Of a stretch of DNA of 64,000 bases, positions 8,831-48,072 are shown in pieces; position 1 is the stretch's first letter, and every line of letters begins with the position of its first letter. The position numbers and the translations under genes were made by a program. Under the pieces are notes generated by a model, which was not told the origin of the DNA, ran no database searches, and was given only the letters and a program-made list of their open reading frames with translations. This stretch comes from Defluviitaleaceae bacterium (GTDB lineage: Bacteria > Bacillota > Clostridia > Lachnospirales > WRAA01), in contig WRAW01000001.1 in assembly GCA_009780015.1 (NCBI GenBank), positions 14,012 through 78,011 on the forward strand, written 5' to 3'.

Positions 8831-8870
8831 TTGTAATTAAAATACTTGACAAAGATTGGTTTATCGTATA

Positions 8871-8914
8871 TCATTGTATTATTGTACTATTAATATAGTA
8901 CAATAATACAATGA
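8871..8914. promoter_or_regulatory. 44-bp perfect palindrome, probable operator of the downstream YtrA-type GntR regulator
   Basis: tcattgtattattgtactat-taat-atagtacaataatacaatga: perfect 20-nt arms with a 4-nt spacer. It lies between a TTGACA box (8846-8851) and the GntR start at 8931. Confidence 0.75.
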
Positions 8915-8930
8915 TATGGGGTAATGTGCC

Positions 8931-20256: not shown

Positions 20257-20826
20257 ATGCCAACTCGAAAAGTGATTGCAATAGGCGCCTCAACCGGCGG
20301 TGTGGAAGCGCTCGGGCAGGTTCTCTCCGGCTTTCCGACGACGATACCGCCAGTGGTGCTGGTTATACATATGCCGCCGGGGTTTACGAAGCTGTTTGCC
20401 ACCAGGTTTAATGAAAAGTTTAAGATTTCAGTAAAGGAAGCGCAATCCGGGGATTATCTAACGAATGGCCAGGTATTGGTTGCGCCTGCCGGGAAACATA
20501 TGAAGGTAGTCATTCGTAATAGCAGATTAGCCGTAGAGTGCTATGTGGGGGAAAAGGTGCAGTATGTTATACCTTCCGCGGACGTGTTGTTTGAATCCGT
20601 GGCAAATGTACTGCGAGAAAAGGCCGTTGGAGTGATAATGACAGGCATGGGGGCGGACGGCGCCAGGGGTTTGTTGATGATGCGTGAGCATGGAGCCGCG
20701 ACAATAGGGCAGAACAGAGAGACATGCGCTATATACGGAATGCCAAAAGTAGCCAGAGAGATGGGAGCCGTAGACCATGAGGTTCCTCTAAATCAGATCG
20801 CCGATAGAATTTTATCATTGGTGTAG
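20257..20826 (+). CDS. CheB-type protein-glutamate methylesterase, catalytic domain only (no receiver domain)
   Basis: VIAIGASTGGVEAL, VLVIHMPPGF and TGMGADGARGL carry the Ser/His/Asp triad contexts. The ATG at 20257 follows AAGGAG. At about 190 aa there is no room for a REC domain. Confidence 0.8.
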   Translation: MPTRKVIAIGASTGGVEALGQVLSGFPTTIPPVVLVIHMPPGFTKLFATRFNEKFKISVKEAQSGDYLTNGQVLVAPAGKHMKVVIRNSRLAVECYVGEKVQYVIPSADVLFESVANVLREKAVGVIMTGMGADGARGLLMMREHGAATIGQNRETCAIYGMPKVAREMGAVDHEVPLNQIADRILSLV

Positions 20827-20869
20827 ACAACATGACACGCAATATTAAGCACCGTCAGGGGGTATACAT

Positions 20870-23590: not shown

Positions 23591-23624
23591 TAACATACTT
23601 TCAGAAAACTAGGAGGTATTATTA

Positions 23625-23702
23625 ATGAAAGTATCACAATTGGTTAAAATTTTGCTGATAGTGTTTGTGTTTTTGGCTGGTATAAACATTGTTTTTCTAT
23701 GA
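23625..23702 (+). other. orphan 25-codon ORF encoding the missing first transmembrane helix of the downstream MCP
   Basis: AGGAGG at 23611, ATG at 23625, [25 protein letters not shown], then TGA at 23700-23702. It is out of frame with the MCP ORF that starts at 23699. Confidence 0.7.
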
Positions 23703-28800: not shown

Positions 28801-30913
28801 CTGGGATAAAAGTCATCAAGCCATTGACTGCAATCAGACCGCTCTTGACTTTTACGGATATTCCAATAAAAAGGAATATATGGGGGATATAGTTAATATT
28901 TCCACCGAATTTCAACCTGACGGATCTCCTTCGGTAGAAAGCCAGAAAAACCACTTGGATACAATTTTTGAGACAGGCTCCGACAGCTTTGAATATACCG
29001 GAAGAAAATCAAACGGTGATGTTGTTTTCTTGCAAGTGGAAGGCATACGCATAAAATATGACGATGAGTTTGTTGCGATCACGTATTCCAAAGACATCAC
29101 TCAACTGAGAGAGCTGCAGAGGGAACAGCAGCGCATTGAAATAGCCGAGGAAAGCAACAGAGCAAAGAGCAGATTTCTGGCAAGAATGAGCCATGAAATA
29201 CGTACGCCGATTACGGCGGTTTTGGGCATTTCAGAAATACAATTGCGGAATACGGCTCTGTCTCCTATTATTGAGGAATCTTTTGCAAAAATTTATAATT
29301 CGGCTAACATACTTCTTGACATTGTAAATGATATTTTAGACCTCTCCAAGATAGAGGCCGGTAAAATGTCCTTGCTGTGCGAAGAATATGAAACCTCAAG
29401 TTTGATTGTCGATGCCGTGCAGTGTCATATCGTGAACCTTGGATACAAAAATTTAGAGTTTCATGTACATGTGGACGAGAATCTTCCAAAACTGCTTGCA
29501 GGTGATTCTCTTCGCATTAAACAGGTTATAAACAATATATTGTCAAATGCTTTCAAATATACAAAGTCAGGTTCGGTGGAGCTATCCATGCACTGCCAAG
29601 AATATGCTTCTGAAGAAAGTTACGTGACGCTTGTGATTTCTATCCGCGACACAGGTCTGGGCATGACCCCGGATCAGATTGACAGATTATACAGCGACTA
29701 CACACGTTTCCATGAACACGAGGTACGTTCCGCAATAGGCACAGGCTTGGGTATGCCCATTGTTTATAATTTGCTGAAATTGATGGATGCGGACATCGAT
29801 ATAGAAAGCGAAGTAGGCGTAGGTACAAACGTAATAGTCCGTATACCTCAAAAAATAGTCGGCTCCGAAGTCTTGGGAAGGAAGTTGGCTGACAGCCTGC
29901 AAAACTTTGAAGTGAGCGCACAATCTGTTGAGAAAAAGTTTAAATTTGTGCCGGAACCGATGCCTTATGGGCGGGTGCTTGTGGTAGACGACGTGAGCGC
30001 GAACTTGTATGTAGCCCATGGATTGCTCTCGTTTTATAGCCTAAACATCGAAACTTGCGATAACGGATATGACGCGATAGAAAAAATTAAACAAGGCAGG
30101 GTATATGATATTGTATTTATGGATCAGATGATGCCCGGTATAAACGGTACTGAAACAATGCGCCTCATGCGTGATATTGGCTATACCGAGCCTATAGTTG
30201 CGCTTACGGCCAATGCCCTGATAGGCCAGGCGGAGGAATTTATAAGAAACGGTTTTGACGGCTTTATTTCAAAGCCTATTCAAACAGTGCACTTGAACAC
30301 AATTTTAACCAAGCATATACGGGACAAACAGCCGCCCGAGGTGCTTGAAGCGGCTATAAGCGGCAGCTTAGAGCATTCCGAAGGCATTGACAATTATCAA
30401 AACAATGCTGATGTGGTGGAAAAATTACGGTCGGATTTTGCCGCCAATCAGAAAAACGCGTTCCTGGAAATAAGTCAGGCCATAACGTCGGGAGATATTA
30501 AAACCGCTCACCGCCTGGCTCATACACTTAAAGGTTTAGCCGGGCTAGTACATGAATCAGACTTGGCGCAAGCCGCCGCGCATGTGGAATATATTCTGGA
30601 AAGCGGCGAAATACCGTCAAATGATAAGCTGTTTGCTTTAAAAAATGAACTGGCGCGCGTGCTCAATAATATTGGCAAGCCGGAAGCTATGATACTTTCC
30701 GGTAAGCTGGTTTTAGATGTGGATAAGGCTATATCGCTGCTCGATAGGTTAAAGCCCTTACTGGAACACCGAAAAGCTGAGTGTCTGAACTTGCTTGAGG
30801 AGCTTCGCACAATACCGGAAACGGCCATATTAGTCAGACAAATTGAGAAATTTGACTTTGCGTCGGCTCTAAAAAGTATGAATACATTAAGGGCTATACT
30901 GGAAGAACAATAA
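25898..30913 (+). CDS. giant hybrid sensor histidine kinase with 8 tandem PAS-like modules, HisKA-HATPase-REC-Hpt
   Basis: There are eight about 140-aa repeats ending in ..DLRxIK. The H-box is FLARMSHEIRTPITAVLG. The HATPase region is IRDTGLGM..GTGLGMPIV. The REC is VLVVDD..IVFMDQMMP and the Hpt is HTLKGLAGL. The start is uncertain (25898 TTG or ATG at 25934). Confidence 0.9.
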   Translation: MELFLSIHINEVMKLDHDANQLPIENRLREAEARLREAEELNEIFLNSLPLIMNIWDENYKLISTSQQAVELFGLSNQELYIERFFELSPEYQPCGERSQEKALYYVKQAFREGRVKFEWMHQNLYGEELPAEIVLVRFARYGKYFVAAYIFDLRTIKKVIENEHEANEINRIFIDTSPFAMGMRDENYNPIYCNSQLLELFGLSSYDEYRKRFFELCPERQPCGTPSDQKALEHMKIAMEKGRHRFEFVHYTADGKLLPTDITLIRIKRQGKNMLAGYIIDLRPLRQAEEESRILFDSCPMFIEVWDDEFNLIGCSQKVVDFFGLANKEEYISRYGELSPKYQPCGTLSVEKAVILARKTFEEGYVRDEWVHIDQITGELFPVEITMVRIRRGGRDVAVGYNHDLRPIKDVLAKMREANSKAREAEELNKLILDASPMCIEMWDDRQNMIYCNNKALNAANVNSFEDYRDRFAELMIPCRTDGTPSENKLSDLLDEAAREGSAQFEWTHRDKDGAQVTYETHLARITRNGRNEIVGYSHDISEIKRAIAEIREADERTALMFDATPLSCIMAKRVTTENGSIRFAAVDCNQAAVDLFDFSGKEETIARFLDIFLKPSEDESILDMAFEDAAIAFDNGFHQFEFTHRNVHGEYIPCKITMVRVNYKGEPMLACYQHDLRQIKAAMSKERESFELTQIILDSAPFIINIWDDNYNIVSTNKRAFELYGFSEQDKYINDFFSFSPEYQPCGTYSREKGINYLKEAYQSGRAQFEWVHQSLDGKLFPTEITLVRSKHKDATILLEYTTDLRRVKAAEDLTRKLLDNAPMFMKFWDAKGNLLDCNKRFLDIFKIKNKAEFTKRFYEFSAAYQPCGTSPEEKNIALINYVIQQGSYSAEWTFVLPSGEELPVNATWVHIVHNGESMILVYSHDLRPIKAAIKRERELETKLREQEMNRRIELMFDAAPLIITYWDKSHQAIDCNQTALDFYGYSNKKEYMGDIVNISTEFQPDGSPSVESQKNHLDTIFETGSDSFEYTGRKSNGDVVFLQVEGIRIKYDDEFVAITYSKDITQLRELQREQQRIEIAEESNRAKSRFLARMSHEIRTPITAVLGISEIQLRNTALSPIIEESFAKIYNSANILLDIVNDILDLSKIEAGKMSLLCEEYETSSLIVDAVQCHIVNLGYKNLEFHVHVDENLPKLLAGDSLRIKQVINNILSNAFKYTKSGSVELSMHCQEYASEESYVTLVISIRDTGLGMTPDQIDRLYSDYTRFHEHEVRSAIGTGLGMPIVYNLLKLMDADIDIESEVGVGTNVIVRIPQKIVGSEVLGRKLADSLQNFEVSAQSVEKKFKFVPEPMPYGRVLVVDDVSANLYVAHGLLSFYSLNIETCDNGYDAIEKIKQGRVYDIVFMDQMMPGINGTETMRLMRDIGYTEPIVALTANALIGQAEEFIRNGFDGFISKPIQTVHLNTILTKHIRDKQPPEVLEAAISGSLEHSEGIDNYQNNADVVEKLRSDFAANQKNAFLEISQAITSGDIKTAHRLAHTLKGLAGLVHESDLAQAAAHVEYILESGEIPSNDKLFALKNELARVLNNIGKPEAMILSGKLVLDVDKAISLLDRLKPLLEHRKAECLNLLEELRTIPETAILVRQIEKFDFASALKSMNTLRAILEEQ

Positions 30914-34793: not shown

Positions 34794-36680
34794 TCAAGTC
34801 TTGTCGTACAGGACTCTTACGTTTTCCAATCTCTTGGTAATTTTTTTCTTGTCGAAGTCTTCCAAAATTATCATTGAGTATTTTCGGCTGGAGCCTGTAA
34901 TATCTCTGAATTCGGCCAAGGTGATTTCGTTGTTCTTTTCAATAAAGTCCGTAACTATGGCTATCGCTTGTTCGTAATACTTCGTGTGAATAACTGTCTG
35001 TTCGTCCAGCCTTGTGACGCTGCCGCCAATTAAGGACTCCAGAACTTCGGCGTACTCCTTGCTGCCCTTTGTAACCTCCGCAACTGTCGGCGGGACAAAC
35101 TTTCCGTCTAAAAGCGCTTTTTCAATCTCCGACTTTATTGCGGATTTCTTCTTGTCATAGGAAATTTCAAATCCTGCTATCGAAACGATGGAATTCGTAG
35201 TTCTGACTAATCCTTCATTTTCCATGATCTTGAGCAATGTCTCAAATTCCTTGTTCTTGAACGAAAGCTTGGCCTTGCTGCGAAGCTCTTCCTTGATTAT
35301 TCCCTGTTTCAAAGGGAACGAGCCGTGGTACTGATTAAGTATTTCCAATATGTCTTCCTTGAAAAGCTCTACTGTGCTGCAATGATAGTACGCCCGGCTC
35401 ATCTCGATTATCACGCCCTGTTCTTGCAGCTTGTCAAGCATCTCAGCCGCGGCGTCTTCACTGACCCCAATGTACGCGGATACATCTGTCAGCTTTGTCG
35501 GCTTGTCCTTGTTTCCGGCAATAAAATCGCCCACAACCTCGCCCGTGTCTCCCTTTTCCTTTACCTGCAGAGCTTGAAGTATCTTTTCATTGGCCGCGTG
35601 CCTCTTCGCGAAAGGATCTAAAATAATCCCGCCCCCTATTGTTTCCATGGGAGAATAGTAGCGGATTACGAAGCGGTCGTTCTTTTTCGCCGCGACGGGC
35701 TCCTCCAGCCGCAGCTGGCAGTAGGCGCTGTCGCCCGGGTTGATTGTCTGGCTGTCCAAAAGGACAAGGCGCGCGAGGACTTCCTTGCAGCCAAGGTAAA
35801 GCCGTATCCTTTCCCAGTACCTCACAGTTCTTTGCGAATGGGGCAGCAAGCTTATTTTTACGTCAAGGTATATCGTTTCTTCCAGAGACCCGGCCTTTGC
35901 CAGCACATCCCCCCGCCGAATCTGGCTGGGCTTTACATTGGAAATATTAACGGCGGTTCTTTGGCCCGCAAACGCCGTCTTGACACTTTCTTCGTGGACT
36001 TGCAGGCTGCGTATCTTGGTCTTGATGCCGTTGGGATAAATGGTCATTTCATCCTCCAGGCCAATCCTTCCTTCTATCAGGGTTCCGGTAATAATCGTAC
36101 CGAAGCCTTTCATCGAAAACACGCGGTCAATATTGAGCCGGGGAGACGCGCCTTCGTTGCGCGCCTGAGTTTCGTCGGACAACCGGTCGATAGTCGCTAC
36201 AAGCTTGTCCAGCCCCCTTTTACTGATAGAGTCAACAGGAATTATAGGGGCATTTTCCAAGAACGTGCCCTCTATTTTTTCCTTTATATCATCTATGACA
36301 AGTTCCGTCATAATATCGTCGGCCAGGTCGGCCTTTGTCAGGACGATTATCGCACTCTTGATATCAAGATAGCTGAGTATGTCGATATGTTCTATTGTTT
36401 GAGGCTTTACCCCCTCGTTCGCGGCAATGGTAAGCATAACAATATCGATTCCCGTGGCGCCCGCAAGCATGTTTTTAATGAATCTCTCGTGGCCGGGAAC
36501 ATCGACTATTCCAGCTCTCTTGCCGCTGGGCAGGTCGAAATAAGTAAAGCCCAGGTTTATGGATATTCCTCTCTTGATTTCCTCTTTCAGCGTGTCTGTT
36601 GAGCGATCCGTCAATGCCTTTATAAGTGTGGTTTTTCCATGGTCGATATGGCCGGCCGTGCCAATGATTACATTTTTCAT
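34794..36680 (-). CDS. selB: selenocysteine-specific translation elongation factor
   Basis: [13 protein letters not shown] and VDVPGHERF form the EF-Tu-like GTPase. A long C-terminal extension of winged-helix-like repeats follows. 628 aa. The start overlaps (ATGA) the stop of the upstream ProRS-like gene. Confidence 0.93.
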
Positions 36681-38398
36681 AAGGACCCCTCATTCACAAT
36701 CGACATACGTTTAATCAAGCTCTGGATGTACTCGGCCGCGTCCTGAGTCGGAACAGTTTCGGAAAAGGATTTATCTCTTGCCTTGATTTCCACAACTCCG
36801 TTTCCGACAGTCTTGGGGCCGACGATAACGCGGACAGGAATTCCAAGGAGATCGGCGTCTGCAAACATCACTCCGGCCGACTCAATCCGGTCGTCAAATA
36901 TTACTTCGACCCCTGCCGCCGATAAATCATTATAAAGAGCCATTGAAACCGCCGCGACATCCTGGTTGCCAAATCTCAGCGCACAAATATGCACCTGCCA
37001 GGGGGCTATAGACATCGGCCAAACCGGGCCGTATTCATCATAACGCGCCTCGCACACGGAAACCGCAAGCCGGCTGATATTGATACCATACCGCCCCATT
37101 GCCGGAAAGCGTTCGTTGCCCTCCTGGTCGGTATATCGTACTTTCATTGCTTCCGAATACTTAGTGCCCTGCTTGATAATACTGCCGACTTCAAATCCGT
37201 TTGAGAATAATATTGACTTTTTACCACATTTAGGACATATGCCGCCTTCTAATATCTTTGAAAAGTCGTGATATTTGGCATTCGGCACATCTCGCCGCAT
37301 ATCAACCCCGGTATAATGATATTCCTCTTGGTTTGCGCCGCAGGCAAGGTTATTGCCTTCCTTAATCGAATTGTCAAACAGTACGGTAATATCTTCGCTC
37401 AAGTTCTGAGGCCCAATATAGCCCGCGCATATTCCTGATTCCAGAGTAATCAAGGCTGGGTAGATATCACAGCCTATGTACTTTCTGAGCTTTGCTTCAT
37501 TTATGTCAAGGTCGCCGCGCAAAAATACAATTATGTAGGAATCATCGGTACCCCTCTGGTATACGACGGCCTTGGAACACTTCTCTTTTGGGATATTCAA
37601 AAATTCGCTCAGCGAGTCGATTGTTTTCATTTCGGGCGTCAGAACCAGTGTCATTTCATCGGAAACATCGTCTCGAACAACCTTAAGAATGTTTTCCGCG
37701 ACCTCTAAATTGGAACGGTAATCGCAGTTACTGCAGGCTGCTATTGACTTTTCCCCTGCCGGATGCCGAAGCAAGAATTGGTGCGACAGGCTGCATCCGG
37801 CAGCGTCATAATCAGAAACAGCCGGAACTACTCCGGTCAACCCAACACGGGTAAAAATTCTTTCGTATGCTCTAAAGCACCTGTCATAATATCTGTCTAG
37901 GTCTTCTTGCGATATATGAAACGAAAAAGCGTCTTTCGCAATAAATTCACGAAGCTTAACAAGCCCGGTCATTTCATCGCGAAATTTGGCTTGGAACTGA
38001 TATAGCGTAAAAGGATACTTTGCGTAGCTTTGTCCGTACTCTCTTACAAATTGAAGCGCCACTTCCTCATATGCCGCACCAAGAACATAGGGCGTCTTAC
38101 TTTGGTCGTTAAAGCCGACAAAATCATCCTTGGCCTTGTCGTATCTGCCTGATTCCTGCGGCAATGACGCTGGAAGCGCCATCGGAAACAACACCTCTTG
38201 GGCGTCTATCGCGCCCATCTCCTCACGGACGATTTGCTCTATCTTTCTCATAATTCTGCGAAGGGGCAGCGCCAACGCATATATACCGTTGGCGACATTT
38301 TTCATATAGCCGCCTCGAATCATAAGAGCGTGGCTGTCAAAAGTGCAATTTGCCGGGCGCTCCTTAAACCGTTCGCCTACGAGCTTGTCAAGCTTCAT
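36677..38398 (-). CDS. bacterial-type prolyl-tRNA synthetase paralogue with INS-like insertion and degenerate catalytic motifs
   Basis: 573 aa and colinear with bacterial ProRS: FRDE...REF..KDAFSFH, an insertion domain of about 180 aa, GTKYSEAMK, and the C-terminal MFADADLLGIPVRVIVGPK anticodon-binding domain. PTHEE is replaced by AAYEE, the motif-2 loop is shortened, and GCYGIGVTR is replaced by GRYGINISR. Confidence 0.8.
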   Translation of the reverse strand: MKLDKLVGERFKERPANCTFDSHALMIRGGYMKNVANGIYALALPLRRIMRKIEQIVREEMGAIDAQEVLFPMALPASLPQESGRYDKAKDDFVGFNDQSKTPYVLGAAYEEVALQFVREYGQSYAKYPFTLYQFQAKFRDEMTGLVKLREFIAKDAFSFHISQEDLDRYYDRCFRAYERIFTRVGLTGVVPAVSDYDAAGCSLSHQFLLRHPAGEKSIAACSNCDYRSNLEVAENILKVVRDDVSDEMTLVLTPEMKTIDSLSEFLNIPKEKCSKAVVYQRGTDDSYIIVFLRGDLDINEAKLRKYIGCDIYPALITLESGICAGYIGPQNLSEDITVLFDNSIKEGNNLACGANQEEYHYTGVDMRRDVPNAKYHDFSKILEGGICPKCGKKSILFSNGFEVGSIIKQGTKYSEAMKVRYTDQEGNERFPAMGRYGINISRLAVSVCEARYDEYGPVWPMSIAPWQVHICALRFGNQDVAAVSMALYNDLSAAGVEVIFDDRIESAGVMFADADLLGIPVRVIVGPKTVGNGVVEIKARDKSFSETVPTQDAAEYIQSLIKRMSIVNEGSL

Positions 38399-38415
38399 TT
38401 GCGATTCCTCCTATA

Positions 38416-38512
38416 GCAATTCCGGTTCAAATTAAGCCCAAATTTTTCGGAACCTCGGTGGCTTCAGGCCGGGGCTTCCGAAAAATTCGGGTTCCTTCTT
38501 AATCGGAATTGC
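38416..38512 (-). other. 97-nt imperfect long hairpin immediately upstream of the ProRS-like RBS
   Basis: gcaattccggttcaaattaagcccaaatttttcggaacc... pairs with ...ggcttccgaaaaattcgggttccttcttaatcggaattgc. On the mRNA strand the 3' arm ends 3 nt before AGGAGG. Confidence 0.6.
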
Positions 38513-38533
38513 TGTATGCTTCACATGCAGAAA

Positions 38534-38576
38534 CAAAAAACCAATGGTTCGCAAGCTGCGGCTCGCAAATCCATTG
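38534..38576 (-). terminator. intrinsic terminator after the TauE/SafE gene
   Basis: The minus strand reads ccaauggauuugcgagc-cgca-gcuugcgaaccauugg followed by UUUUUUG. It is preceded by a second perfect 12-bp hairpin at 38589..38626. Confidence 0.8.
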
Positions 38577-38675
38577 AATATAATTGTTGCTTACTCTCCC
38601 AACGGCAATGCGCCGGGAGAGTAAGCTATATAGCCAGACTACAGTAATTTGGGGTTGCTGTCAACTACTTCGTTA

Positions 38676-39590
38676 TTATTTCTGAACGGACTTGAAGTAG
38701 GAGCCGATCATCATTAGAGCAGTGATAGTAACAACAACTACTACCAGCCATATTAACAGGCCCATTTGGAACACGCCGCGGAAGAACTGGAATGCCAAGA
38801 AAACTCCCGGAAGGCCAAGCAAACCAATAGCTAAGGATTGTTTTCTGGCGTACTTACCTTCTTTAACAAACTTAATACCGGCAACGCTCATAAGGAACGC
38901 GCAGGCGCCCATCATTATCGGGAACGCGGCAGGCTGCGACAGACCAAGCAGGAATACCAACGCCATGGCAGGTGAGTACAGGCCGACGCCCGCTGTCATT
39001 AACGCGCCCAGTATAAAGAAACCAACAACACCAATAACGAAATTAACGCCTGAGAGACCTAATGTACCTTCACCCGGAGGCAGCCATCCAATTATACCAA
39101 GGTTTCTGCCGGCCATCGCAGCGGCGACAAGGATTAGCGCGACTCCCACAATAAGCTGTATTTTATTTCTGTCGAATTTAACAACAACACCGGCGCCAAG
39201 CCAAGCGCCAACAACAGAAGCGCCTATAAGGGAAATTAACGTAACAAAGTCAACCTCAACATAGCCGATGTACAAAAATGACATAAATACAACCGGTAAT
39301 GTGTGAGCAACGTTAAGCGTACCGGGTATTACACCAACGTCTACTACTTTTGTAGCTTTAAAAGCGAAAGTTGTAGGCGCAAAAGAACCTATGCCCAAAG
39401 TATCAAAAAAGTTGGTTATAAAGCCGATAAAGCCGGATATGGCAACATTATTCTTAATCTCTTTACCTTCGTCGCCTAATACTTTCTCATCTTTGTGAGC
39501 CACAACGTCCTTAATAAAGACATACGCATAAATTGCTGCTAAAATACCCATCAATACTAATAAAACGGTAATTGGATCCATGAATCTCAT
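38676..39590 (-). CDS. TauE/SafE (DUF81) family permease
   Basis: 304 aa with about 8 TM segments. Internally duplicated glycine-rich helices are typical of DUF81. It is the last gene of the prd transcription unit. Confidence 0.75.
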   Translation of the reverse strand: MRFMDPITVLLVLMGILAAIYAYVFIKDVVAHKDEKVLGDEGKEIKNNVAISGFIGFITNFFDTLGIGSFAPTTFAFKATKVVDVGVIPGTLNVAHTLPVVFMSFLYIGYVEVDFVTLISLIGASVVGAWLGAGVVVKFDRNKIQLIVGVALILVAAAMAGRNLGIIGWLPPGEGTLGLSGVNFVIGVVGFFILGALMTAGVGLYSPAMALVFLLGLSQPAAFPIMMGACAFLMSVAGIKFVKEGKYARKQSLAIGLLGLPGVFLAFQFFRGVFQMGLLIWLVVVVVTITALMMIGSYFKSVQK

Positions 39591-39610: not shown

Positions 39611-40615
39611 TTATAGAACAAAGCCATACTTGACAGGATCCCTGTCGTCAATAATAAACGTGTTAAAGCCTGTTATGTAGGCCGACCCGGTTATTTCGGG
39701 AGTAACAGCGTCAAAGTCTCCTGCTTTTGTAATGCCAAGAATCTTGCCCTTGAAAAGAGTGCCTAATATGCTTTCATATACAAAGGGTTCTCCTTCTTTC
39801 AGCTTGCCCTTGGCATACAAGGCTGCCATTTTTGCGCTTGTGCCGGTTCCGCACGGAGAGCGGTCAACCTGGCCGTCGCCAAAAATAACCACGTTCTTAT
39901 AATCGGCGTCCGGGTGGGTAGGCTCGCCATAAATCTCCACAAGATCGCATGTCTTGATGTGGCTAAGATATGGGTGACGCATTTCCACCTGTTGGTTTAC
40001 GCAGTCTCTGATTTTCAGAGCCAGTTGCATAAGTTCGGTCACGTTCTTCGGCAAAATATCAATTCCCAAGTTTTTTGCGTCTACAAGAGCAAAGAACGAA
40101 CCTCCGAAGGATATGTCCAAGGTAAGCTTGCCAAGCCCGGGAACGTCTACCGTGACGCCCTCCTTGTAAAGAAACGACGGGACATTGACAATCGAAACCT
40201 CTTCCACTTTTTCTCCCGACACTTTTACTTGAGCCTTAATAAGTCCGGCGGGGGTATCCATAATAACATCGGTAACAGGTTCTTTCGCTTTGACAATACC
40301 TGTTTCGACAGCAACGGTAGCCGCTCCTATCGACCCGTGGCCACACATATTAAGATATCCACCTCCGTCCATAAAAATTATGCCAAAATCTGCTTCTTGA
40401 CTGCATGGCTGGGTTATGATGGAACCAAACATGTCACGGTGGCCTCTTGGTTCGTTCATAAGGGCGGTTCTGAGATAGTCCATTTCGTCAATAAGATACT
40501 GCTTTTTTTCGGCCATGGTGTTTCCTTTGATATTGGGGATTCCTCCCGTAATAATTCTTGTCGGTTCCCCCATTGTATGGCTATCGATGGCATTAATTAC
40601 CCTCGAGATTTTCAA
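39611..40615 (-). CDS. prdF: proline racemase
   Basis: MKISRVINAIDSHTMGEPTRI, NMCGHGSIG and DRSPCGTGTSA (the two catalytic Cys contexts). The TTG start overlaps the prdE stop. Confidence 0.95.
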   Translation of the reverse strand: MKISRVINAIDSHTMGEPTRIITGGIPNIKGNTMAEKKQYLIDEMDYLRTALMNEPRGHRDMFGSIITQPCSQEADFGIIFMDGGGYLNMCGHGSIGAATVAVETGIVKAKEPVTDVIMDTPAGLIKAQVKVSGEKVEEVSIVNVPSFLYKEGVTVDVPGLGKLTLDISFGGSFFALVDAKNLGIDILPKNVTELMQLALKIRDCVNQQVEMRHPYLSHIKTCDLVEIYGEPTHPDADYKNVVIFGDGQVDRSPCGTGTSAKMAALYAKGKLKEGEPFVYESILGTLFKGKILGITKAGDFDAVTPEITGSAYITGFNTFIIDDRDPVKYGFVL

Positions 40616-41085
40616 CTGCTTTCACCCTTCCGTATTTTTAGCTTTAAAAAGGCCAAAGCTTTTCTCGCGTCCAATTGCGTAATATTGTTTTCACCTACGA
40701 CTTGGGTCTCTATCCCTTCCGCGGATTTATTAAAATCTATGATGCAATCCATGTACTTATTCGTAACAACAAATTGAGCAATCGTACCAATAAAGTTAAG
40801 GCCTACTATCGGAATGCCTCTCTTGCCTACCTCTTCGATGGTGTTCGCAAAATCAATATCATTATTGCCCCACCCGTCACAAGATATTATTGCGCCGTCC
40901 ACACGCATGGCTTCAAGCCACGCGGCAACTCTGCCCCCGACAAAGTGCTTCATTCTATTGTCCTGGGGAGTGCCTACGACTATAATGCCGACAAAGTCGA
41001 TATCACTGTCGTTCGACAACACGCTGACAAGAGGATCCCTGAAATGGTGAAGCGATGTTTCCTTTGTTGACGGACCAAGTCCCAT
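40612..41085 (-). CDS. prdE: proline reductase cluster protein PrdE (PrdA C-terminal homologue)
   Basis: 157 aa. It parallels the PrdA C-terminus: HHFRDPLV.. vs HYFREPLV.., DFVGIIVVGTPQ vs DFVGVIFVGSPQ, GWGNNDIDFA vs GFGNNHIDFA. Confidence 0.85.
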   Translation of the reverse strand: MGLGPSTKETSLHHFRDPLVSVLSNDSDIDFVGIIVVGTPQDNRMKHFVGGRVAAWLEAMRVDGAIISCDGWGNNDIDFANTIEEVGKRGIPIVGLNFIGTIAQFVVTNKYMDCIIDFNKSAEGIETQVVGENNITQLDARKALAFLKLKIRKGESS

Positions 41086-41140
41086 TCAACCATCACCTCC
41101 TTAATATGATACCTCCTTTGCGTGACCTTATTCTTGAAGT

Positions 41141-41899
41141 TTAATCCATGGCTCTTATGGCGCCGTCGCGGTACTCGTTCGGGGACAGTATTAGCGGGAC
41201 GTTCTGCACGTCTATGATCGATATGCCGCCGTCGTAACCGCTGGGCTCGTCCGGGAAAAGGAGGTTGTCATACATTGCGCCCTGCCCGGACACTTGCTTG
41301 ATAAGAGCGACCTTCTTCTTGCCTGTGCCCGCCCTGTCGAAAAACTCGTGGATTTCGCCGGCTTCACCGGCCTCGTTAGTCTTCATCGCCTCTCTTATGG
41401 TCTGCATGAAGCGGTCACAAGACCGGAACGCCGCCGTGGGAAGCGCTCTGTTGAAAGGCTGCCCGCCTTTCAACAGGACGTCCACATGTATGATAAAATC
41501 TGTTTCCGCCGGTGTGCCGGCCCTACCGAAAATTATGTGTTCCGCCAGTATGCCTTCGGAAGAGCCGAACTCGTGCATTTGCCTGCCGTCTTGGTCACAC
41601 CCTGTCAGCACGACCACAGCGCCCGTAAGGGTGTGGGTTATGCCTTCGCCCAGCCTGCCCAAAACCTTGGTGGATACCGGGATGATATCCATTATCGTAT
41701 TCGTCTCGACCCTGGTTTCTCCGGGCTTTATGACAGAAACGGTCATATCTATGACCAGTTCCTCTCCGGCGATGATTTCGGACAGTATTTCCCTGGAAAT
41801 ATTCAAGGTACTCCCTTTGACGGACGCCTTCTTCGCAAACTCTACGTTTGTGATATGGAAGGCTCTGATAACCAAGCGCCGCAGCACATCGTTCATCAT
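41141..41899 (-). CDS. prdD: proline reductase cluster protein PrdD (PrdA N-terminal-half homologue)
   Basis: It parallels the PrdA middle region: HEFGSSEG vs GEFGSSEG, QGAMYDNLLFP vs QGAMHDNLILP. The ATG at 41899 follows AAGGGTG. Confidence 0.85.
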   Translation of the reverse strand: MMNDVLRRLVIRAFHITNVEFAKKASVKGSTLNISREILSEIIAGEELVIDMTVSVIKPGETRVETNTIMDIIPVSTKVLGRLGEGITHTLTGAVVVLTGCDQDGRQMHEFGSSEGILAEHIIFGRAGTPAETDFIIHVDVLLKGGQPFNRALPTAAFRSCDRFMQTIREAMKTNEAGEAGEIHEFFDRAGTGKKKVALIKQVSGQGAMYDNLLFPDEPSGYDGGISIIDVQNVPLILSPNEYRDGAIRAMD

Positions 41900-41929
41900 C
41901 AAACACACCCTTGGAGTTTCCGCGCGAAC

Positions 41930-42655
41930 TTAGATTTGCGCGTGATATTGGAACGGCAACGGAACGGTAGTGCCCGGATCTTTGATCTCGACCAGCTGTT
42001 TCAAAGACTCTCTTAAAATGTCTCTCTGCATGTCATTGTCATGGGGCGCGCCTGCGTTTGCGCCCATGGGAACCAATGGGGCGACGGCTCTTGGCGACCC
42101 GTTCTGACGTGTTACAGGAGGAAGCGCCGTAATGATGATTGTGGGAATACCTGCTTGTTCTATAGCCCTCTGCACGATCGCGGCAGTTCTATGACAAGTC
42201 CCTCAGCCGCCGGTCAAAACAACGGCGTCAACATTTTCTTCCTTGAGAAGCTCGGCGATTTTCGGGCCGGTCTCGTTTGTGAAAACTTCCTGATTTCCGC
42301 CGCCTCCCATAAAGGCGTAGTGCAGCGGCGCGGCGGCCTTTATAAAGCCTTCTTCAACCAGCTCGGTCAGCCTGTCAACAGGGAACATGCAGTTGATGTC
42401 CTTGTTAACGTCGGCGTTGTCGTATCCTCCGTGGGATACCATCATGTTCTCCGTTCCCGAATCATGTGGAACAACTCTGTAGGTTGTATCACCCGCCAGA
42501 TTAAACCTTGTGTCCTTCTTCAAGTGAACACCGGCGGCTGTCGCCAGAGCCACCGTCATGTCCTTCAGTTCCTTGGTAACAGGCGCCCACACGGGCGGCG
42601 GTGTAATTGGCACGTAAATTTCTGATTGAAGTCCTTTTACTGCTGTCAAGCTCAT
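41930..42655 (-). CDS. prdB: D-proline reductase subunit PrdB, selenoprotein (UGA at 42203..42205 read as Sec)
   Basis: ORF-track pieces 42203..42655 and 41930..42175 are in the same frame and separated only by TGA. The context is VVLTGG-U-GTCHRTAAIVQRAIEQAGIP. The 726 nt total gives 241 aa. Confidence 0.93.
42154..42198 (-). promoter_or_regulatory. candidate bacterial SECIS hairpin for prdB
   Basis: It starts 4 nt after the UGA: cuugu-c-auag-aa-cugc-cgcgaucgu-gcag-aggg-cuau-aga-acaag. Confidence 0.5.
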
Positions 42656-42657
42656 TA

Positions 42658-42936
42658 TTAATACTCCTTTCGTCTTATTTCTTCTTTGCGTCTGCTTGTT
42701 TCCTGCAGTGTCCGCACATATGCTTCGTCAGGCTCGGCGCTTAAAACTTCCGGGTAAGTCATAAGAAAACCGACGGTTTGACCCACCTGCAACGGATAAT
42801 CGGTTATTACCATCCTAAGAGGCAGCTTCATCTGCCCCAGCCTGCCCTTGATGTCAATTGTGACAGACCCGGCGGTTACTTCCACCAAGATTCCTTCGTA
42901 CATTTGTTCCGATGAAATATATTTGAGTTTATTCAT
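42658..42936 (-). CDS. small conserved prd-operon protein (between prdA and prdB)
   Basis: 92 aa. The position equals the small ORF that I recall between prdA and prdB in clostridial prd operons. There is tight spacing on both sides. Confidence 0.65.
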   Translation of the reverse strand: MNKLKYISSEQMYEGILVEVTAGSVTIDIKGRLGQMKLPLRMVITDYPLQVGQTVGFLMTYPEVLSAEPDEAYVRTLQETSRRKEEIRRKEY

Positions 42937-42950
42937 ATTGTACCGTCATA

Positions 42951-44834
42951 TTATTCCTTCTCGTAAACGGTTTCTCTCTTCTTGCTCTTGGGCAGAGACT
43001 GCTCGTTGTCGACAAGCTCGATCTTCTTGCCTGTAGCTTTCTCAATGGCCTCAATGTTGCTGAGCTTGACGTTTGAGTTCCACTTCTTTTCGGCCGCCTT
43101 AACATCTTCGCCCGACAACGCCGCTCTGAGCATGTACAGCGAACGAATGGCGTCTTCCTGCGTAAGGGTATTGTTGCATAAGATTTCGTTCTCAATGCCC
43201 TGCTTGGACTTGTTGTTGTCGATCATGTACTTCATGTACTTGTTTCCTACAACAAGAGCCCCTTGCACCGCCGAGTAAGAAACGCCCACAACCTTTACGC
43301 CGCGTTCGCCGATTTGTTCGATGTGGGACGCGAAGTCTATATGGTTGTTGCCGAAACCTTCGGTGGTAACAATGGCGCAGTCTACGTCCATGGCTTCAAC
43401 CATCATGCCGAGCCGCTTGGAAACATAGAATTTCTCAGAGTTAGCCTGGGGCGAACCTACGAAGATAACCCCAACAAAGTCAAAATCCTCGTCCTTCATC
43501 GCTTCCAGGACAAGAGGTTCGCGGAAGTAATGCCTGGAATTTTCCTTGGAAGCCGGGCCGATGCAAGTCAAAGCGTGGATTCCGCCGTCCAGCACTTCCA
43601 GAGGGGACAGCATGACGGGCAGATTTCCAAGATCGACGTTTGGCTTTGCGCCAAGAGTTCCGACAGGCTCCACGGGAAGGATAAGGTTGTCATGCATTGC
43701 GCCTTGACCCATGATTTCCTTGACCACTACGACCTTGGCCTTACCCGGCCTTCTTACCTGAGCAAATTCCTCTTCGCGGGCGCAAAGGGAAGAGTCGGCC
43801 TTTTTCAGCGCCTTCCTGATTTCTTCCGTGATATAGTCGGAAGCCTTGTGGGCGGCGAGAGGACCCGGTCTTTCCATGTTTGCTCCGGCCTTGATAGTAA
43901 CTTGGGTCTTGATAAGAATTTCGCCTCTGTCGGGCGCGCCGGGGCGTCCCCACATGATGTTGCGATCCATTTCGCCTTCGGAGGAACCGAATTCGCCGAT
44001 CTGTACTCCATTCGCATCGGTTCCGGTAAGAACAAATACGACGCCGTCCATTACTCTTGTGACACCATGTCCGAGTTCGCCTTCTTCCTTGCAGGCAATA
44101 GGCTGAACGTCCATGATCGTTTCAGAGTACTGGCCATACTTATCAGGAGTTATGATCTCAAGCTTGACATCTACAACAAGGTCTTCCGAATCCTTAGCTT
44201 CCTTGCAAAGCTGTTCGGGCTTGCGAAGGGTAAGGGTTGTGCCTTGAATCTTGGTCTCGTCTCCGAACACAATCTCATTTACCTTGAAGTACTTGCGCTT
44301 CAGGGTTCTGACTACCTTTGCGGCGACGGGAGCGCTTTGTCCGGCTGCCCCGGCTGCTGAGGAAGCCAAACCCGCTTGAATCGCCGCGCCCGCAGGCGCA
44401 GCCGCCGAAGGAGCCACGGAGTAAGCTACGGGTATTTCAAGCTTGATATCCTTACCTTCGCCAATGTGTATTTTAAGGCTTGGGCCAAAAGCCGCGCCGA
44501 CAGGCGCATGTGAAACAGGCTCGGCCGCTGCTTCCACGACAGGAGCCACGGGCGCAGCCGAAACGCTGTTGGCGGCGGCTCCGGCCGCGAGCTCTACATG
44601 CTCGGCCGTCATGGGAGTCAGGGCGTCAATTGTTTTGATAAGCTTCGCGCCTAAAACCTGACCAATGGTGTAACAATCGCCCGGAATCTTCAAAAGACCG
44701 GAATCTTCAAGGTCAGAAAAAATTGCGGGGTCTTCCAAGTGCGACACTTCAATAGTAGCACCGGCCTCAAACCGGCAGCAACTCACAGCAAAGTCATTAG
44801 CGTGCTCTTTTGCTGTTTCAGCGCTGATAGACAT
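42951..44834 (-). CDS. prdA: D-proline reductase proprotein PrdA
   Basis: 627 aa with an Ala/Pro-rich linker. The HALTCIGPASK region is the expected processing (pyruvoyl-forming) Cys context. The C-terminal domain is homologous to PrdE. Confidence 0.93.
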   Translation of the reverse strand: MSISAETAKEHANDFAVSCCRFEAGATIEVSHLEDPAIFSDLEDSGLLKIPGDCYTIGQVLGAKLIKTIDALTPMTAEHVELAAGAAANSVSAAPVAPVVEAAAEPVSHAPVGAAFGPSLKIHIGEGKDIKLEIPVAYSVAPSAAAPAGAAIQAGLASSAAGAAGQSAPVAAKVVRTLKRKYFKVNEIVFGDETKIQGTTLTLRKPEQLCKEAKDSEDLVVDVKLEIITPDKYGQYSETIMDVQPIACKEEGELGHGVTRVMDGVVFVLTGTDANGVQIGEFGSSEGEMDRNIMWGRPGAPDRGEILIKTQVTIKAGANMERPGPLAAHKASDYITEEIRKALKKADSSLCAREEEFAQVRRPGKAKVVVVKEIMGQGAMHDNLILPVEPVGTLGAKPNVDLGNLPVMLSPLEVLDGGIHALTCIGPASKENSRHYFREPLVLEAMKDEDFDFVGVIFVGSPQANSEKFYVSKRLGMMVEAMDVDCAIVTTEGFGNNHIDFASHIEQIGERGVKVVGVSYSAVQGALVVGNKYMKYMIDNNKSKQGIENEILCNNTLTQEDAIRSLYMLRAALSGEDVKAAEKKWNSNVKLSNIEAIEKATGKKIELVDNEQSLPKSKKRETVYEKE

Positions 44835-44865
44835 AAGTTTACCTCCTTAGAAATAGTTTCGAGAT

Positions 44866-46158
44866 TTATTTTAACCTTCTGTAGAGCCTGTGTTTTGCGG
44901 CGCGAAGCACGTGATCCGTCGAGTGGTATACCGGAACTCCCAGCCTGGGAGCTACTTCCATGACCGTATTAGTTCAGTCCTCGCAAGACCCGGCTATAAT
45001 AACTTCGGCGCCTTTTGCCTTGAGTCCAAGAACTTTTTCGGCTTGTCCCGGACAATTGCCCGGTTCCTCGCATCTGAAACGGCCGCCGATTTCTACCATA
45101 CGCTTACACTTTGCCTCGGCGACAACAGTGCCGCCCATTCCCGCGACGATCTCGCCAAGCCTTTCTTCTCCGGCGCCGCACTCGCACGCGAGTACGCCAA
45201 ATTTTCTATGGTCGACCGGAAACGGCATCGCCACGAAAACCCCGCTAAGGATTTTTGTAACGACAGATTCTTCGCTGCCACTTTTCCCGGTAAACGGGCC
45301 GCCCAGCAGTATTTCGCCGTGAGGCTGCAAGTAGCCGCCGCATTCGTCTATATATTTCTTCACAGATGTACCGATTGGCTGATCCAAGTATACGCGACTG
45401 CTGTCCTGAGTGTCCAAAAGCCTTCCCCCGACGGTCAAGTCCTTTGTAATCACCGGCTTGCGAAGCTCAATAGCTTCCGCTATTCTTCTGATGGTTTCCA
45501 CATTGGAAACAATTGCGTTCGCGTCCAGCGGAAGCTGCCCCGGCTTTAAAACCACACCAAGAAGCTCCCGGAGAATAGATCTCTCATCACCGGAAGGATA
45601 TCTGTCGGCAAGATATTTAACCTCTATGTTAGCTTCGCTCTTGCAGGCTTTCGCAATAGCGATAAGCTCGGCGGTATGCTTTGGTTTTATTGCTATATAG
45701 CCCTTTTTTGCGCCTGTCATTTCCATAGCGTACTTGACGCCGCGGACAAGGAGGTCGGGATGCTCTTTAATGACGCTCATGTTGTGTTTCAAAATAGGTT
45801 CGCACTCGGCGGCGTTCAGTATGACGCAACCGCCTTCCAGCTTGGTGTTATACTTGACATGGGTCGGAAAGCCCGCGCCGCCCGCCCCGACAACGCCCGC
45901 TTCCTTGACGGCTTCAAGATACGAGTCTGTCTCCCTGATCTTGATATATTCCTCGGGCTGTTCGGCATCGGGAATTATCCTTACCGCTTTTGCGTCAATC
46001 CCCGCAACCTCTCCGTACACGCTGGAGTGAATATTAGCCCCCAGCCCTTCGCAGACGGCAATCAACTGACCTTTTTTTACCTTGTCGCCAACATTAACCA
46101 GTGGTTTGCCCGGCGTACCAACATGCTGCTTCATTTCTATGCATATATACTCAGGCAT
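44866..46158 (-). CDS. prdC: proline-reductase-associated electron transfer protein PrdC (RnfC-like), probable selenoprotein (UGA at 44974..44976)
   Basis: It has an RnfC-like SLBB/NADH-binding region (GAGGAGFPTHVKY). The ORF track stops at TGA 44974, but the frame continues ..AGSCED-U-TNTVMEVAPRLGVPVYHSTDHVLRAAKHRLYRRLK to TAA at 44866-44868. The ATG at 46158 follows GAGAGGAGG. Confidence 0.85.
44933..44959 (-). promoter_or_regulatory. candidate SECIS hairpin for prdC
   Basis: ggaa-guag-cuccca-ggc-ugggag-uucc, beginning 14 nt after the UGA. Confidence 0.45.
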
Positions 46159-46520
46159 ATTTCGCCTCCTCTCAGGTTCTTGTTGCAAATAATACTAGTT
46201 TCTTTGCTTAAATCCACCAAGATGTGAAAAATTTGTCGTTATAATAATAACATATTCAGAATCACTTGGCAAGCTTTTTTGAATCCATCCCAATTTGGCA
46301 TTTAATGTATTAGTTAGAAATTTAAAGGAAACAATATAGTCACCGCCTCTATATATCTATTTTTACCGATAACAGGCGAAAAATAGCTCTTAACAGCTGA
46401 CAGTTGATACCAGCAGCGATAGCATTGGATTGATTGCGACCAATATTGTATGTATTGGCACAACGCAATAAACGTAAAGCAAATTTTCGTGAACTTTATA
46501 CAATTTTTTTCTGGCCGAAC

Positions 46521-46626: not shown

Positions 46627-48072
46627 ATGCTGAACGACAAGAATGACAATAAGAAGGTTCTGGCGATAACGTCGCGCGAAGAGGATTTTGCGCGCTGGTA
46701 CACCGACATCGTCATAAAGGCGGAGCTTGCGGACTATTCGACTGTCAAGGGCTGCATAGTCTACAGGCCGCTGGGGTACGCCATATGGGAAATGATACAG
46801 GCGGCGTTTGACAAAATGATAAAGGACACCGGGCATCACAATGTTTACATGCCCATGCTCATACCCGAGTCCCTGCTGCAAAAGGAGGCCGAGCACGTCG
46901 AGGGCTTCGCCCCGGAGGTCGCGTGGGTAACGCACGGCGGCCACGAAAAGCTGGCCGAGCGCCTGTGTATCCGCCCGACGTCCGAGACTCTGTTCTGCGA
47001 CCACTACGCGAAGGTAATCCAGTCGCACAGGGATCTGCCGAAGCTCTACAACCAGTGGTGCAGCGTATGCCGCTGGGAAAAGACAACGCGCCCGTTCCTT
47101 CGCGGCAGCGAATTCCTGTGGCAGGAGGGTCACACGGCACATGCCACTTATGACGAGGCTCAAACCGAAACTCTGATGATCCTGGATTTTTATGAGGATG
47201 TATGCCGTGACTTTCTCGCCATACCCGTTATAAAAGGCCAGAAAACCGACCGGGAAAGATTCGCCGGAGCAAAGGCGACCTATACCATCGAGAGCCTTAT
47301 GAACGACGGCAAGTCGCTCCAGTCCGGCACAAGCCACAACTTCTCGGACGGCTTTGCCAGAGCGTTCGACATAAAATTCACCGACAAAAACAACGAGATA
47401 CAATATGTTTATCAGACCTCGTGGGGAATGTCAACCAGAACTATCGGCGCGTTGATAATGGTACACGGTGACGATAACGGTCTTGTACTGCCTCCAAAGG
47501 TCGCGCCGACCCAGGTTGTTATAATACCGGTCGCATCTCATAAAGAAGGCGTCATGGAACAATGTGTCCGGCTTAAATCACAGCTTTCATCAAAGTTCCG
47601 CGTAGTCTTGGACGACTCGGACAAGTCGCCGGGCTGGAAGTTCGCCGAACACGAGATGAAGGGCGTACCCCTCCGCCTGGAACTTGGGCCTAAAGACATC
47701 GAAAGCGGCCAGGTCACGCTTGTCCGCCGCGACAATTCCGAGAAATGCACCGTTGCGCTGGACGAAGTCTCTTCCGCGATTGAAAAGCTGCTGGACAAGA
47801 TACAGTCCGACATGCTGCAGCGCGCAATCGAACACAAGACCGCCAACACCAGGGTAGCCAATACCTATGAGGAACTGGCCGCCATCGCCGAGCAGCACGC
47901 CGGATTCATAAAGGCCATGTGGTGCGGCAGCGGCGAGTGCGAGTTAAATATAAAGAACGACCTTGGCGTAACCGCGCGCTGCATACCGTTCGAGCAGGAA
48001 CAGCTCGGCTCGAAATGCATAGCGTGTGACGAGGCGGCCAAGCAACTGGTGATTTGGGGTAAATCTTACTAG
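46627..48072 (+). CDS. proS: proline--tRNA ligase, archaeal/eukaryal type (no INS editing domain)
   Basis: 481 aa. [59 protein letters not shown] and [26 protein letters not shown], plus the C-terminal Zn-type domain ending ..IWGKSY. Confidence 0.93.

Follow-up and report, generated by a model that had tools for sequence, protein, structure and literature searches.

A 64,000-nucleotide stretch of the genome of a Defluviitaleaceae bacterium (contig WRAW01000001.1; called the window throughout, with positions counted from its first letter) contains, on the minus strand at 36677..38398, an open reading frame (ORF) for a full-length relative of bacterial prolyl-tRNA synthetase (ProRS), denoted ProRS* in what follows, that has lost many conserved residues of its synthetic site and has kept nearly all of those in its INS editing domain and its anticodon-binding domain (ABD). 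We think it reasonably probable that ProRS* is an anticodon-directed Ala-tRNAPro deacylase that acts in trans and whose synthetic site no longer makes Pro-tRNAPro. The proposal starts from four observations, namely a loss and retention of residues that follow domain boundaries, purifying selection, co-occurrence with an INS-less ProRS and a conserved linkage to prd and selB genes, and from these we infer the loss of aminoacylation in the window copy, the deacylase activity, the identity of its substrate and a physiological rationale. A second degenerate protein, P0004 (580 aa, from the 7.3-kb JGI metagenome contig L001), shows the same behaviour; judged by the residues that remain, the loss of synthesis appears certain for P0004 and is probable for the window copy. 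An initial annotation of the window, made from the DNA letters, had suggested a whole ProRS that has lost, or is losing, aminoacylation and is kept for INS editing beside an INS-less ProRS, and every comparative test described below lends support to that suggestion.

The ORF begins with ATG, encodes 573 aa and occupies, in the ORF listing, exactly the coordinates assigned to it at the outset. The complete bacterial ProRS layout that had been described for it, with INS and ABD included, is borne out by Pfam domains and PDB matches: tRNA-synt_2b spans residues 97-448 and is split by an insertion, tRNA_edit (PF04073, 60.7 bits against a cutoff of 25.5) covers 254-363 and HGTP_anticodon 468-560, with PF00587, PF04073 and PF03129 following one another in the order of a P-type ProRS. 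The best PDB sequence matches score 376 bits (5ucm and 8w8j) and 363 bits (2j3l), the best-matching solved structures being the ProRS of P. aeruginosa, that of E. faecalis and a third P-type ProRS (PDB 5znj), and an AlphaFold (AF2) model superposes on solved P-type ProRS with a Foldseek TM-score of 0.80. The model tells only that the fold is predicted to be retained; as a test of degeneracy it was set aside, since pLDDT is low both for residues 1-42 and around the motif 2 loop and an identical profile was obtained with the canonical control P0002, modelled from the same set of sequences. Three independent assemblies (ENA, Logan and JGI) contain the identical protein, which is therefore not an assembly artefact.

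By descent, as far as sequence can tell, ProRS* belongs with the P-type ProRS. It scores 454 bits with the looser model TIGR00409 and so passes the cutoff of 306.7, which explains the automatic label at NCBI ('MAG: proline--tRNA ligase [Defluviitaleaceae bacterium]'). With the stricter equivalog NF006625 (cutoff 558) it reaches 533.7 bits and P0004 456.8, against 615-635 for canonical relatives, and in its residues ProRS* is short of a functional equivalog on three counts: the NF006625 cutoff, the proline site and the loop that contacts the acceptor stem. Conservation was judged against the 118 closest canonical relatives, 57-65% identical to ProRS*, from the best 120 matches in a database of 5.8 billion clusters; the 247 alignment columns whose conservation in this set reaches 97% or more are called invariant. 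The gene and its parts are the following.

36677..38398, minus strand: ProRS* gene, with degenerate synthetic site (ORF listing, domain matches, NF006625 score)
37733..38398, minus strand: N-terminal part of the class II core (aa 1-222), with TXE loop AAYEE, motif 2 carrying a 3-aa deletion, Pro-binding loop SDYDAAGCS and SHQF; 37/132 invariant columns changed
38063..38077, minus strand: TXE loop, M-T-H-E-E changed to A-A-Y-E-E (alignments)
37943..37984, minus strand: motif 2, FRDEM---TGLVKLREF (alignments)
37214..37732, minus strand: INS editing domain (aa 223-395), PF04073 match; 2/49 invariant columns changed, AF2 pLDDT 83-95
37013..37213, minus strand: C-terminal part of the core (aa 396-462), with GSIIKQG and motif 3 GRYGINISR; 11/37 invariant columns changed
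36680..37012, minus strand: ABD (aa 463-573), PF03129 match; 2/29 invariant columns changed

The changes are concentrated in the synthetic core, where ProRS* departs at 48 of 169 invariant columns as compared with 4 of 78 in INS and ABD taken together (Fisher, p = 9e-6). The same contrast is found in P0004 (p = 1e-8), with 3/49 invariant columns changed in INS and 3/29 in ABD, and canonical proteins depart at a mean of 1.1 invariant columns and a maximum of 12. Within the core it is the ligand contacts that have been hit. Using the list of Pro-AMP and tRNA contacts from the paper on the MtbProRS/Pro-AMP structure (PMC13629369), we find 14 of 23 contact columns changed in ProRS* versus 34 of 146 other invariant core columns (p = 7e-4), and 18/23 versus 53/146 in P0004; counted over 25 contact positions, ProRS* keeps 10 and P0004 keeps 5.

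All four motif substitutions quoted in the initial annotation are present in alignments to solved structures and to the 118 relatives. LG(P/M)THEE has become LGAAYEE when aligned with 5ucm, 2j3l and the relatives, that is T109A and H110Y in E. coli numbering (used for the core positions below) with the TXE Glu kept; LGMTHEE is found in 117 of the best 120 matches, and P0005 has LAMTHEE with Thr, His and Glu intact. In motif 2, FRDEARPRAGLIRVREF has become FRDEM---TGLVKLREF, a 3-residue deletion that removes R144-P145-R146, and the second Arg of the motif is replaced by Lys (R151K), the invariant Arg, Glu and Phe of the motif being kept. GNIFQLGTKY reads GSIIKQGTKY, where F-to-I, Q-to-K and L-to-Q strike invariant columns. 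The His of 'GHIF', which had been taken as near-invariant, is Asn in 117 of the 118 close canonical relatives, and H-to-S alone means little. Motif 3, GCYGIGVGR, is GRYGINISR, with C443 replaced by Arg and the ribose-contact Gly by Asn (G447N). To these can be added changes at 5 of the 8 Pro-binding-loop positions (SGMMGG to YDAAGC) and the replacement by Gln of the metal-water Glu of SHEF (E209Q). The roles of the TXE Thr, which hydrogen-bonds the proline amino group, and of the Thr/Glu pair, the Pro-binding loop, the SHEF Glu and the motif 3 Gly are those given in PMC13629369, and R144 of the motif 2 loop contacts G72 of the tRNAPro acceptor stem (PMC10164551). T109, the Pro-binding loop, E209 and G447 are invariant in the 118 relatives, all 118 of which keep the catalytic residues of motifs 2 and 3, mostly as FRDEARPR(A/G)GLIRVREF and GCYGIGVGR. 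The possibility raised initially, that the substitutions fall within the normal variation of active ProRS, is not borne out: the altered positions of the proline site and of motif 2 are invariant both in these relatives and in the aligned solved active enzymes.

P0004 has gone further, with LGMTHEE changed to NSPCFQE, FRDE to LCDQ, REF to REG and GCYGIGVGR to GQYETNITQ. It is without the motif 2 Arg, Glu and Phe and without the motif 3 Arg, the arginines now being C140 and Q446. ProRS* keeps both class II invariant arginines (R140 and R443, in motif 2 and motif 3) and, with R140, E142, F155, E410, G412 and R450, six of the seven ATP/adenylate contacts plus the TXE Glu, so that the adenylate-binding half of its site appears largely intact. 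The arginines, the motif 2 Glu and Phe and the E410/G412 ribose and metal contacts, together with a TIGR00409 score above cutoff and the coexistence of active P-type and E-type ProRS in Bacillus thuringiensis (PMC11229370), are what would be expected if the window copy were an active isozyme whose amino-acid pocket has been remodelled. Such a protein could be a second ProRS that tolerates stress or inhibitors, or it could activate another substrate, for example a proline analogue plentiful in a cell that reduces proline. We regard an active isozyme as unlikely in view of the missing TXE Thr, the rebuilt Pro-binding loop, the metal-water Gln and ribose-contact Asn, the loss of the acceptor-stem-contacting RPR and of the second motif 2 Arg, all at positions that active enzymes hold constant, and of an NF006625 score below cutoff. 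The closest protein that behaves in the same way, P0004, has moreover lost every catalytic residue. Finally, 58 columns at least 90% conserved among canonical relatives are changed in both copies, and at 40 of the 58 the two copies have acquired different residues, a pattern that looks like relaxed constraint on a former active site and speaks against a new conserved ligand pocket. The same pattern, with the proline pocket as the most damaged part of the protein, disfavours the proline sensor that had been offered as an alternative in the initial annotation.

The editing half of the protein presents a very different picture. Mutagenesis in E. coli has identified T257, I263, L266, K279, D350 and H369 as important for editing by INS, and both ProRS* and P0004 retain every one of them; in the numbering of ProRS* itself they are T254, I260, L263, K276 (E. 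coli K279), D342 and H361. The near-universal INS Lys serves to position A76 (PMC10164551). With the GxxGP loop kept as well (GYIGP in ProRS*), the domain is by all sequence criteria a member of the INS superfamily. The ABD of ProRS* is 72% identical to that of P0004, the highest ABD identity among the pairs compared. At both junctions between core and INS stands a cluster of four cysteines, C222/C225/C388/C391 (CxxC ... CPxC, nt about 37224-37735), that is invariant in 58 aligned relatives and in both degenerate proteins and absent from three aligned P-type ProRS, those of E. coli, P. aeruginosa (5ucm) and E. faecalis (2j3l); it may be a structural zinc site.

Evolutionary rates divide along the same lines. 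Neighbour-joining root-to-tip distances over core columns are 1.16 for ProRS* and 1.46 for P0004 against 0.865 +/- 0.021 for canonical relatives, and over INS and ABD columns 1.41 and 1.46 against 1.47 +/- 0.03, so that by this measure INS and ABD are not accelerated in ProRS*. Because dS is saturated, nonsynonymous and synonymous differences (pN and pS) are given in place of dN/dS: between the ProRS* and P0004 genes pS is about 0.82 (saturated) and pN is 0.25 in the core and 0.19 in INS and ABD, as compared with pN values of 0.11 and 0.21 for the canonical pair P0002/P0003. The core would thus evolve about twice as fast as in working enzymes, with INS and ABD at the normal rate or slower. A pN of 0.19-0.25 at saturated pS indicates that the whole protein is under purifying selection and is no pseudogene; pseudogene status was also rejected on the frame, which is intact in the window, in the three assemblies and in P0004.

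These values bear directly on whether ProRS* could be a functionless relic, an original proS made redundant by an acquired E-type ProRS and slowly decaying with its frame uninterrupted so far. The strong loss of invariant residues, the rarity of the clade (two members among 5.8 billion clusters) and a usual Firmicute proS slot after rseP that is empty in the window would all be compatible with decay. We nevertheless find it very unlikely, with ORFs of 573 and 580 aa intact and preceded by strong Shine-Dalgarno (SD) sequences, synonymous sites saturated at the low pN given above, INS and ABD no more diverged than in working enzymes, losses aimed at ligand contacts rather than evenly spread, and translational coupling to selB, which is essential for PrdB, conserved in both loci. 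As to the empty slot, proS follows rseP/rasP in Bacillus-type genomes. The window carries pyrH-frr-uppS-cdsA-dxr-rseP at 3036-8769 and then, at 8770-10005, a 130-aa ORF and an ABC transporter, and this interval contains no ProRS remnant. An argument from an ancestral slot is weak, however, since dxr-rseP-proS occurs in only 1 of 98 fetched relatives and the order is atypical of the lineage.

The window copy has one known counterpart. A profile made from the two degenerate sequences and run against the 5.8 billion clusters gave 1239 and 1261 bits for the two proteins themselves (P0001 and P0004) and 925 bits for the next match. A scan of species-representative genomes, which also missed the source genome, returned only canonical relatives at 56% identity or less, and a scan of metagenome contigs returned canonical relatives only. 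The search for fragments with a C-terminal profile found 120, of which 119 have a canonical motif 3; the exception, P0186 (motif 3 Cys to Arg), was rejected as a piece of a frameshift-ridden long-read assembly. The initial annotation had asked whether prd- or selB-linked paralogues form a clade; a second linked copy is found in L001, where prdB, a small ORF, prdA and prdC lie on one strand and the degenerate ProRS followed by selB (299 bits) on the other, the selB start overlapping the ProRS stop by 4 nt, ATGA. Canonical relatives P0002, P0005, P0006, P0007 and P0008 are in contexts unrelated to prd or selB. On two contigs of P0007 (L100, 4925-7175; L101, 2329-4579) the canonical P-type ProRS gene is directly followed by one for a free-standing 155-aa tRNA_edit protein (YbaK/ProX-like), and the pair is flanked by amino-acid-kinase (proB-like) genes, forming a cluster for proline biosynthesis, charging and editing.

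In trees ProRS* nests inside a clade of canonical clostridial ProRS and is therefore a recent, lineage-specific derivative; the idea that it is an intermediate towards free-standing ProX finds no support in this placement. It is possibly the displaced original proS rather than a duplicate. A single origin of the two degenerate copies is favoured by trees that pair them in 100 of 100 bootstraps with all columns and with core columns, and in 70 of 100 with INS and ABD columns, and by the overlapping ProRS*-selB operon that they share. Adjacency of proS and selB seems to be older than the degeneration. On contigs of canonical P0003 (L003, L004 and L020) selB is at 2-1402 on the minus strand and proS, for a motif-intact ProRS 64% identical to that of the window, at 2091-3821 on the plus strand, so that the organism of L003 carries a canonical ProRS that adjoins selB divergently.

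The linkage to genes of proline reduction and selenoprotein synthesis can be appreciated from the features around ProRS*, which on the minus strand follow the order prdC, prdA, small ORF, prdB, prdD, prdE, prdF, TauE-like, ProRS*, selB, glpK.

46627..48072, plus strand: INS-less E-type (archaeal/eukaryote-like) ProRS (TIGR00408, 609 bits against a cutoff of 437)
39611..46188, minus strand: D-proline reductase cluster (NCBIfam TIGR04481, TIGR04480, TIGR04482, NF010576)
44974-46188, minus strand: prdC
42951-44834, minus strand: prdA
42658-42903, minus strand: small conserved ORF between prdA and prdB, 81 aa (92 aa at 597-875 in L001), of no Pfam family
41930-42655, minus strand: prdB, with an in-frame TGA for selenocysteine (Sec) at 42203-42205
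41141-41908, minus strand: prdD
40612-41085, minus strand: prdE
39611-40615, minus strand: prdF, proline racemase
38676..39590, minus strand: TauE/SafE-like membrane protein between prdF and ProRS* (Pfam PF01925)
38399..38675, minus strand: structured leader of 277 nt between the TauE-like gene and ProRS* (folding energy)
34794..36680, minus strand: selB, Sec-specific elongation factor (TIGR00475, 340 bits)

The position between the prd operon and selB that was first reported for ProRS* stands, with two additions, a TauE-like gene that separates prdF from the ORF and a stop codon that overlaps the selB start by 4 nt (ATGA, 36677-36680), precisely as in L001. Read on the coding strand, the leader has promoter-like hexamers followed by two long hairpins, between which lies a terminator-like hairpin with a U-run (38569-38548), and by a strong SD sequence; with a minimum free energy of -108.7 kcal/mol (z = -7.24 versus shuffles) it looks like an attenuator or a terminator of the prd operon, and it is not conserved in L001. 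Rfam searches for a T-box or other riboswitch upstream of either proS gene gave nothing at the gathering threshold, at E<=1 over 36-48.5 kb or at E<=10 on the leaders, apart from one 9-bit match on the wrong strand at the last setting, and regulation of these genes by a T-box was rejected.

The canonical INS-less ProRS of archaeal type noted initially at 46627..48072 is real and intact. It matches T. thermophilus ProRS 1h4q with 514 bits and has RPTSET, motif 2, GTSH, the Zn cysteines and the C-terminal Tyr. To all appearance fully functional, it is presumed to be the housekeeping synthetase. Its gene lies divergent from prdC, 8 kb from ProRS*, and has a G+C content of 0.548, as compared with 0.476 for ProRS*, 0.479 for selB and 0.51 for the whole window, values compatible with a different history or a different level of expression.

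Given this neighbourhood one may ask whether ProRS* is instead a tRNA-binding regulator or a helper in selenoprotein synthesis, its ABD and perhaps its INS acting on tRNAPro or another tRNA to tune selB and prd expression or the translation of PrdB. The ATGA overlap with selB in both loci, the canonical P0003 that also neighbours selB, the Sec that PrdB needs and the precedent of CysRS*, a synthetase paralogue genetically coupled to SelB and SelC homologues (PMC9437257), would be in keeping with such a role. Pure binding has no need of the INS hydrolytic residues, however, all of which are conserved, and the ABD keeps its canonical ProRS signature; the window has neither a tRNA gene nor a T-box or other known RNA element, and sel genes commonly travel with prd clusters simply because PrdB is a selenoprotein (PMC10564238). 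We therefore hold a regulator or helper of this kind to be quite unlikely. A related proposal takes the nearly whole ATP/adenylate site and the rebuilt amino-acid pocket and acceptor-stem contact as its point of departure, which make it conceivable that ProRS* activates a substrate other than proline or uses ATP binding as a switch; a synthetase-derived regulator of this sort, linking tRNAPro status to PrdB synthesis in proline-respiring cells via the coupling to selB, strikes us as highly improbable.

Trans-editing by ProRS*, the reading that we prefer, draws on what is known of INS in canonical enzymes. Das et al. (PMC3973320) have shown that the cis-acting INS domain has no intrinsic recognition of tRNAPro and depends on an ABD that reads G35/G36 rather than on acceptor-stem elements, and that full-length E. 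coli ProRS deacylates pre-formed Ala-tRNAPro in trans. This dependence would explain the pattern found here, in which the ABD and the core scaffold are kept and the proline pocket and the G72-contacting loop have become dispensable. Where a bacterial ProRS is without INS, as in C. sticklandii, Ala-tRNAPro is cleared in trans by ProXp-ala (PMC10164551), and there is precedent for an E-type ProRS that serves bacterial tRNAPro in a Firmicute (PMC11229370). In the window's organism the INS-less E-type ProRS would charge tRNAPro, at times yielding Ala-tRNAPro, and the ABD of ProRS* would capture the mischarged tRNA in trans via anticodon bases G35/G36. The CCA end would then be placed in the INS pocket, where K276, H361 and the hydrophobic pocket residues would catalyse deacylation, the dead core persisting as a scaffold that holds the geometry of INS and ABD and probably provides a dimer interface. 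A conceivable physiological rationale is that racemisation and reduction of proline lower the Pro:Ala ratio, which would raise the need for proofreading when prd is expressed.

Several points weigh against this proposal. Complete loss of activity is indicated only for P0004; the window copy, with both class II arginines and six of seven ATP contacts, retains enough to leave room for residual ATP binding and for weak or altered activation. The editing model does not account for the tight coupling to selB, and a ProXp-ala encoded elsewhere in the genome would make ProRS* redundant. Only two members, both uncultured, are known from the profile search of 5.8 billion clusters and the fragment search, and two results speak against their descent from one degenerate ancestor: the quartet site patterns of INS and ABD number 2, 6 and 3, so that the pairing is not favoured, and the window SelB is 82.5% identical to that of L003 and only 77.7% identical to that of L001. 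Organism tree and gene tree may disagree, and parallel loss, unequal rates or transfer of the cluster are possible sources of the conflict over a shared origin.

If our interpretation is correct, its implications extend beyond this locus. So far only INS relatives of a single domain, which recognise the acceptor stem, have been credited with trans-editing of Ala-tRNAPro; a ProRS of full length that has a dead core and works by way of its ABD would be a second and mechanistically different solution. ProRS* would also be a natural separation-of-function allele, with editing and anticodon recognition kept and aminoacylation removed by evolution, and therefore of use in work on communication between the ABD and the distant INS site. 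A further lesson would concern the fate of a synthetase whose charging role has passed to a foreign isozyme: instead of being lost, it may be kept for a secondary activity. Since genes of this type pass TIGR00409 and the window copy is labelled as a ligase, counts of functional ProRS in genomes can be wrong.

Other features of the window merit brief mention. Two apparent fusions of tetrapyrrole genes lie within a hemA-hemL-hemB cluster that neighbours MoeA and MobA/MobB genes, a 569-aa ORF at 50864-52573 (CbiK cobalt chelatase with porphobilinogen deaminase) and a 518-aa ORF at 52570-54126 (tetrapyrrole methylase with HemD). At 25898-30913 the gene calls for L017 give a giant hybrid sensor kinase of 1671 aa with PAS, HisKA, HATPase, receiver and Hpt domains, which adjoins CheB-like, hybrid kinase and MCP genes at 20188-25834.

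Comparison with known systems begins with the canonical P-type ProRS, such as those of E. coli and E. faecalis (2J3L), with which ProRS* shares homology over the full length, the three-domain layout and the editing residues. In ProRS* as in these enzymes, INS would have to rely on the ABD to select tRNAPro (PMC3973320). ProRS* differs in its degenerate synthetic site, and it could therefore edit only in trans, on tRNA charged by another enzyme. In this proposed clearing of Ala-tRNAPro in trans, in accompanying an INS-less ProRS and in its membership of superfamily PF04073 it resembles ProXp-ala (ProX/PrdX). ProXp-ala and YbaK are, however, single domains of about 150-170 aa, with neither synthetase core nor ABD, and ProRS* was not assigned to them; ProXp-ala reads G72/A73 of the acceptor stem, whereas the three-domain, 573-aa ProRS* would read the anticodon and descends from canonical clostridial ProRS, not from the ProXp-ala lineage. 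According to a 2024 review the members of the INS superfamily other than INS are all single-domain, and the eight known trans-editing families are described as single-domain as well (PMC11295145).

Bacillus thuringiensis shows that a single Firmicute genome can carry two ProRS genes that differ in architecture (BtProRS1/2, P-type and E-type, PMC11229370), and Streptomyces ProRSx is a diverged ProRS paralogue with a new role, the only one given in reviews of duplicated synthetases (PMC9437257). Unlike ProRS*, these proteins are active with motifs intact, no degenerate synthetic site having been reported for them, and our searches of the literature brought up no account of a ProRS whose synthetic site has degenerated while the protein is kept for editing. 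A looser analogy is provided by the ThrRS pair T1/T2 of Anabaena, where one duplicate proofreads in trans for the editing-poor copy (PMC4787780). T1 is fully active as a synthetase, ceases to aminoacylate only when zinc is lost, and works as a heterodimer with T2, whereas in ProRS* the degeneracy is genetic and a P-type ProRS is not expected to form heterodimers with an E-type one. As a working analogy the crenarchaeal ThrRS-ed, the editing member of the split pair ThrRS-cat/ThrRS-ed, comes closest: derived from a synthetase and itself non-aminoacylating, it has kept an editing domain and an ABD and edits in trans the product of a separate catalytic enzyme (PMC3592468, PMC11295145). It belongs to another synthetase family, has an editing domain of another fold and is archaeal, and the ThrRS with which it is paired is of its own type, while the ProRS served by ProRS* would be of the other structural type. 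With these differences kept in mind, ProRS* would, if the proposal is right, be the first ProRS counterpart of the ThrRS-ed arrangement.

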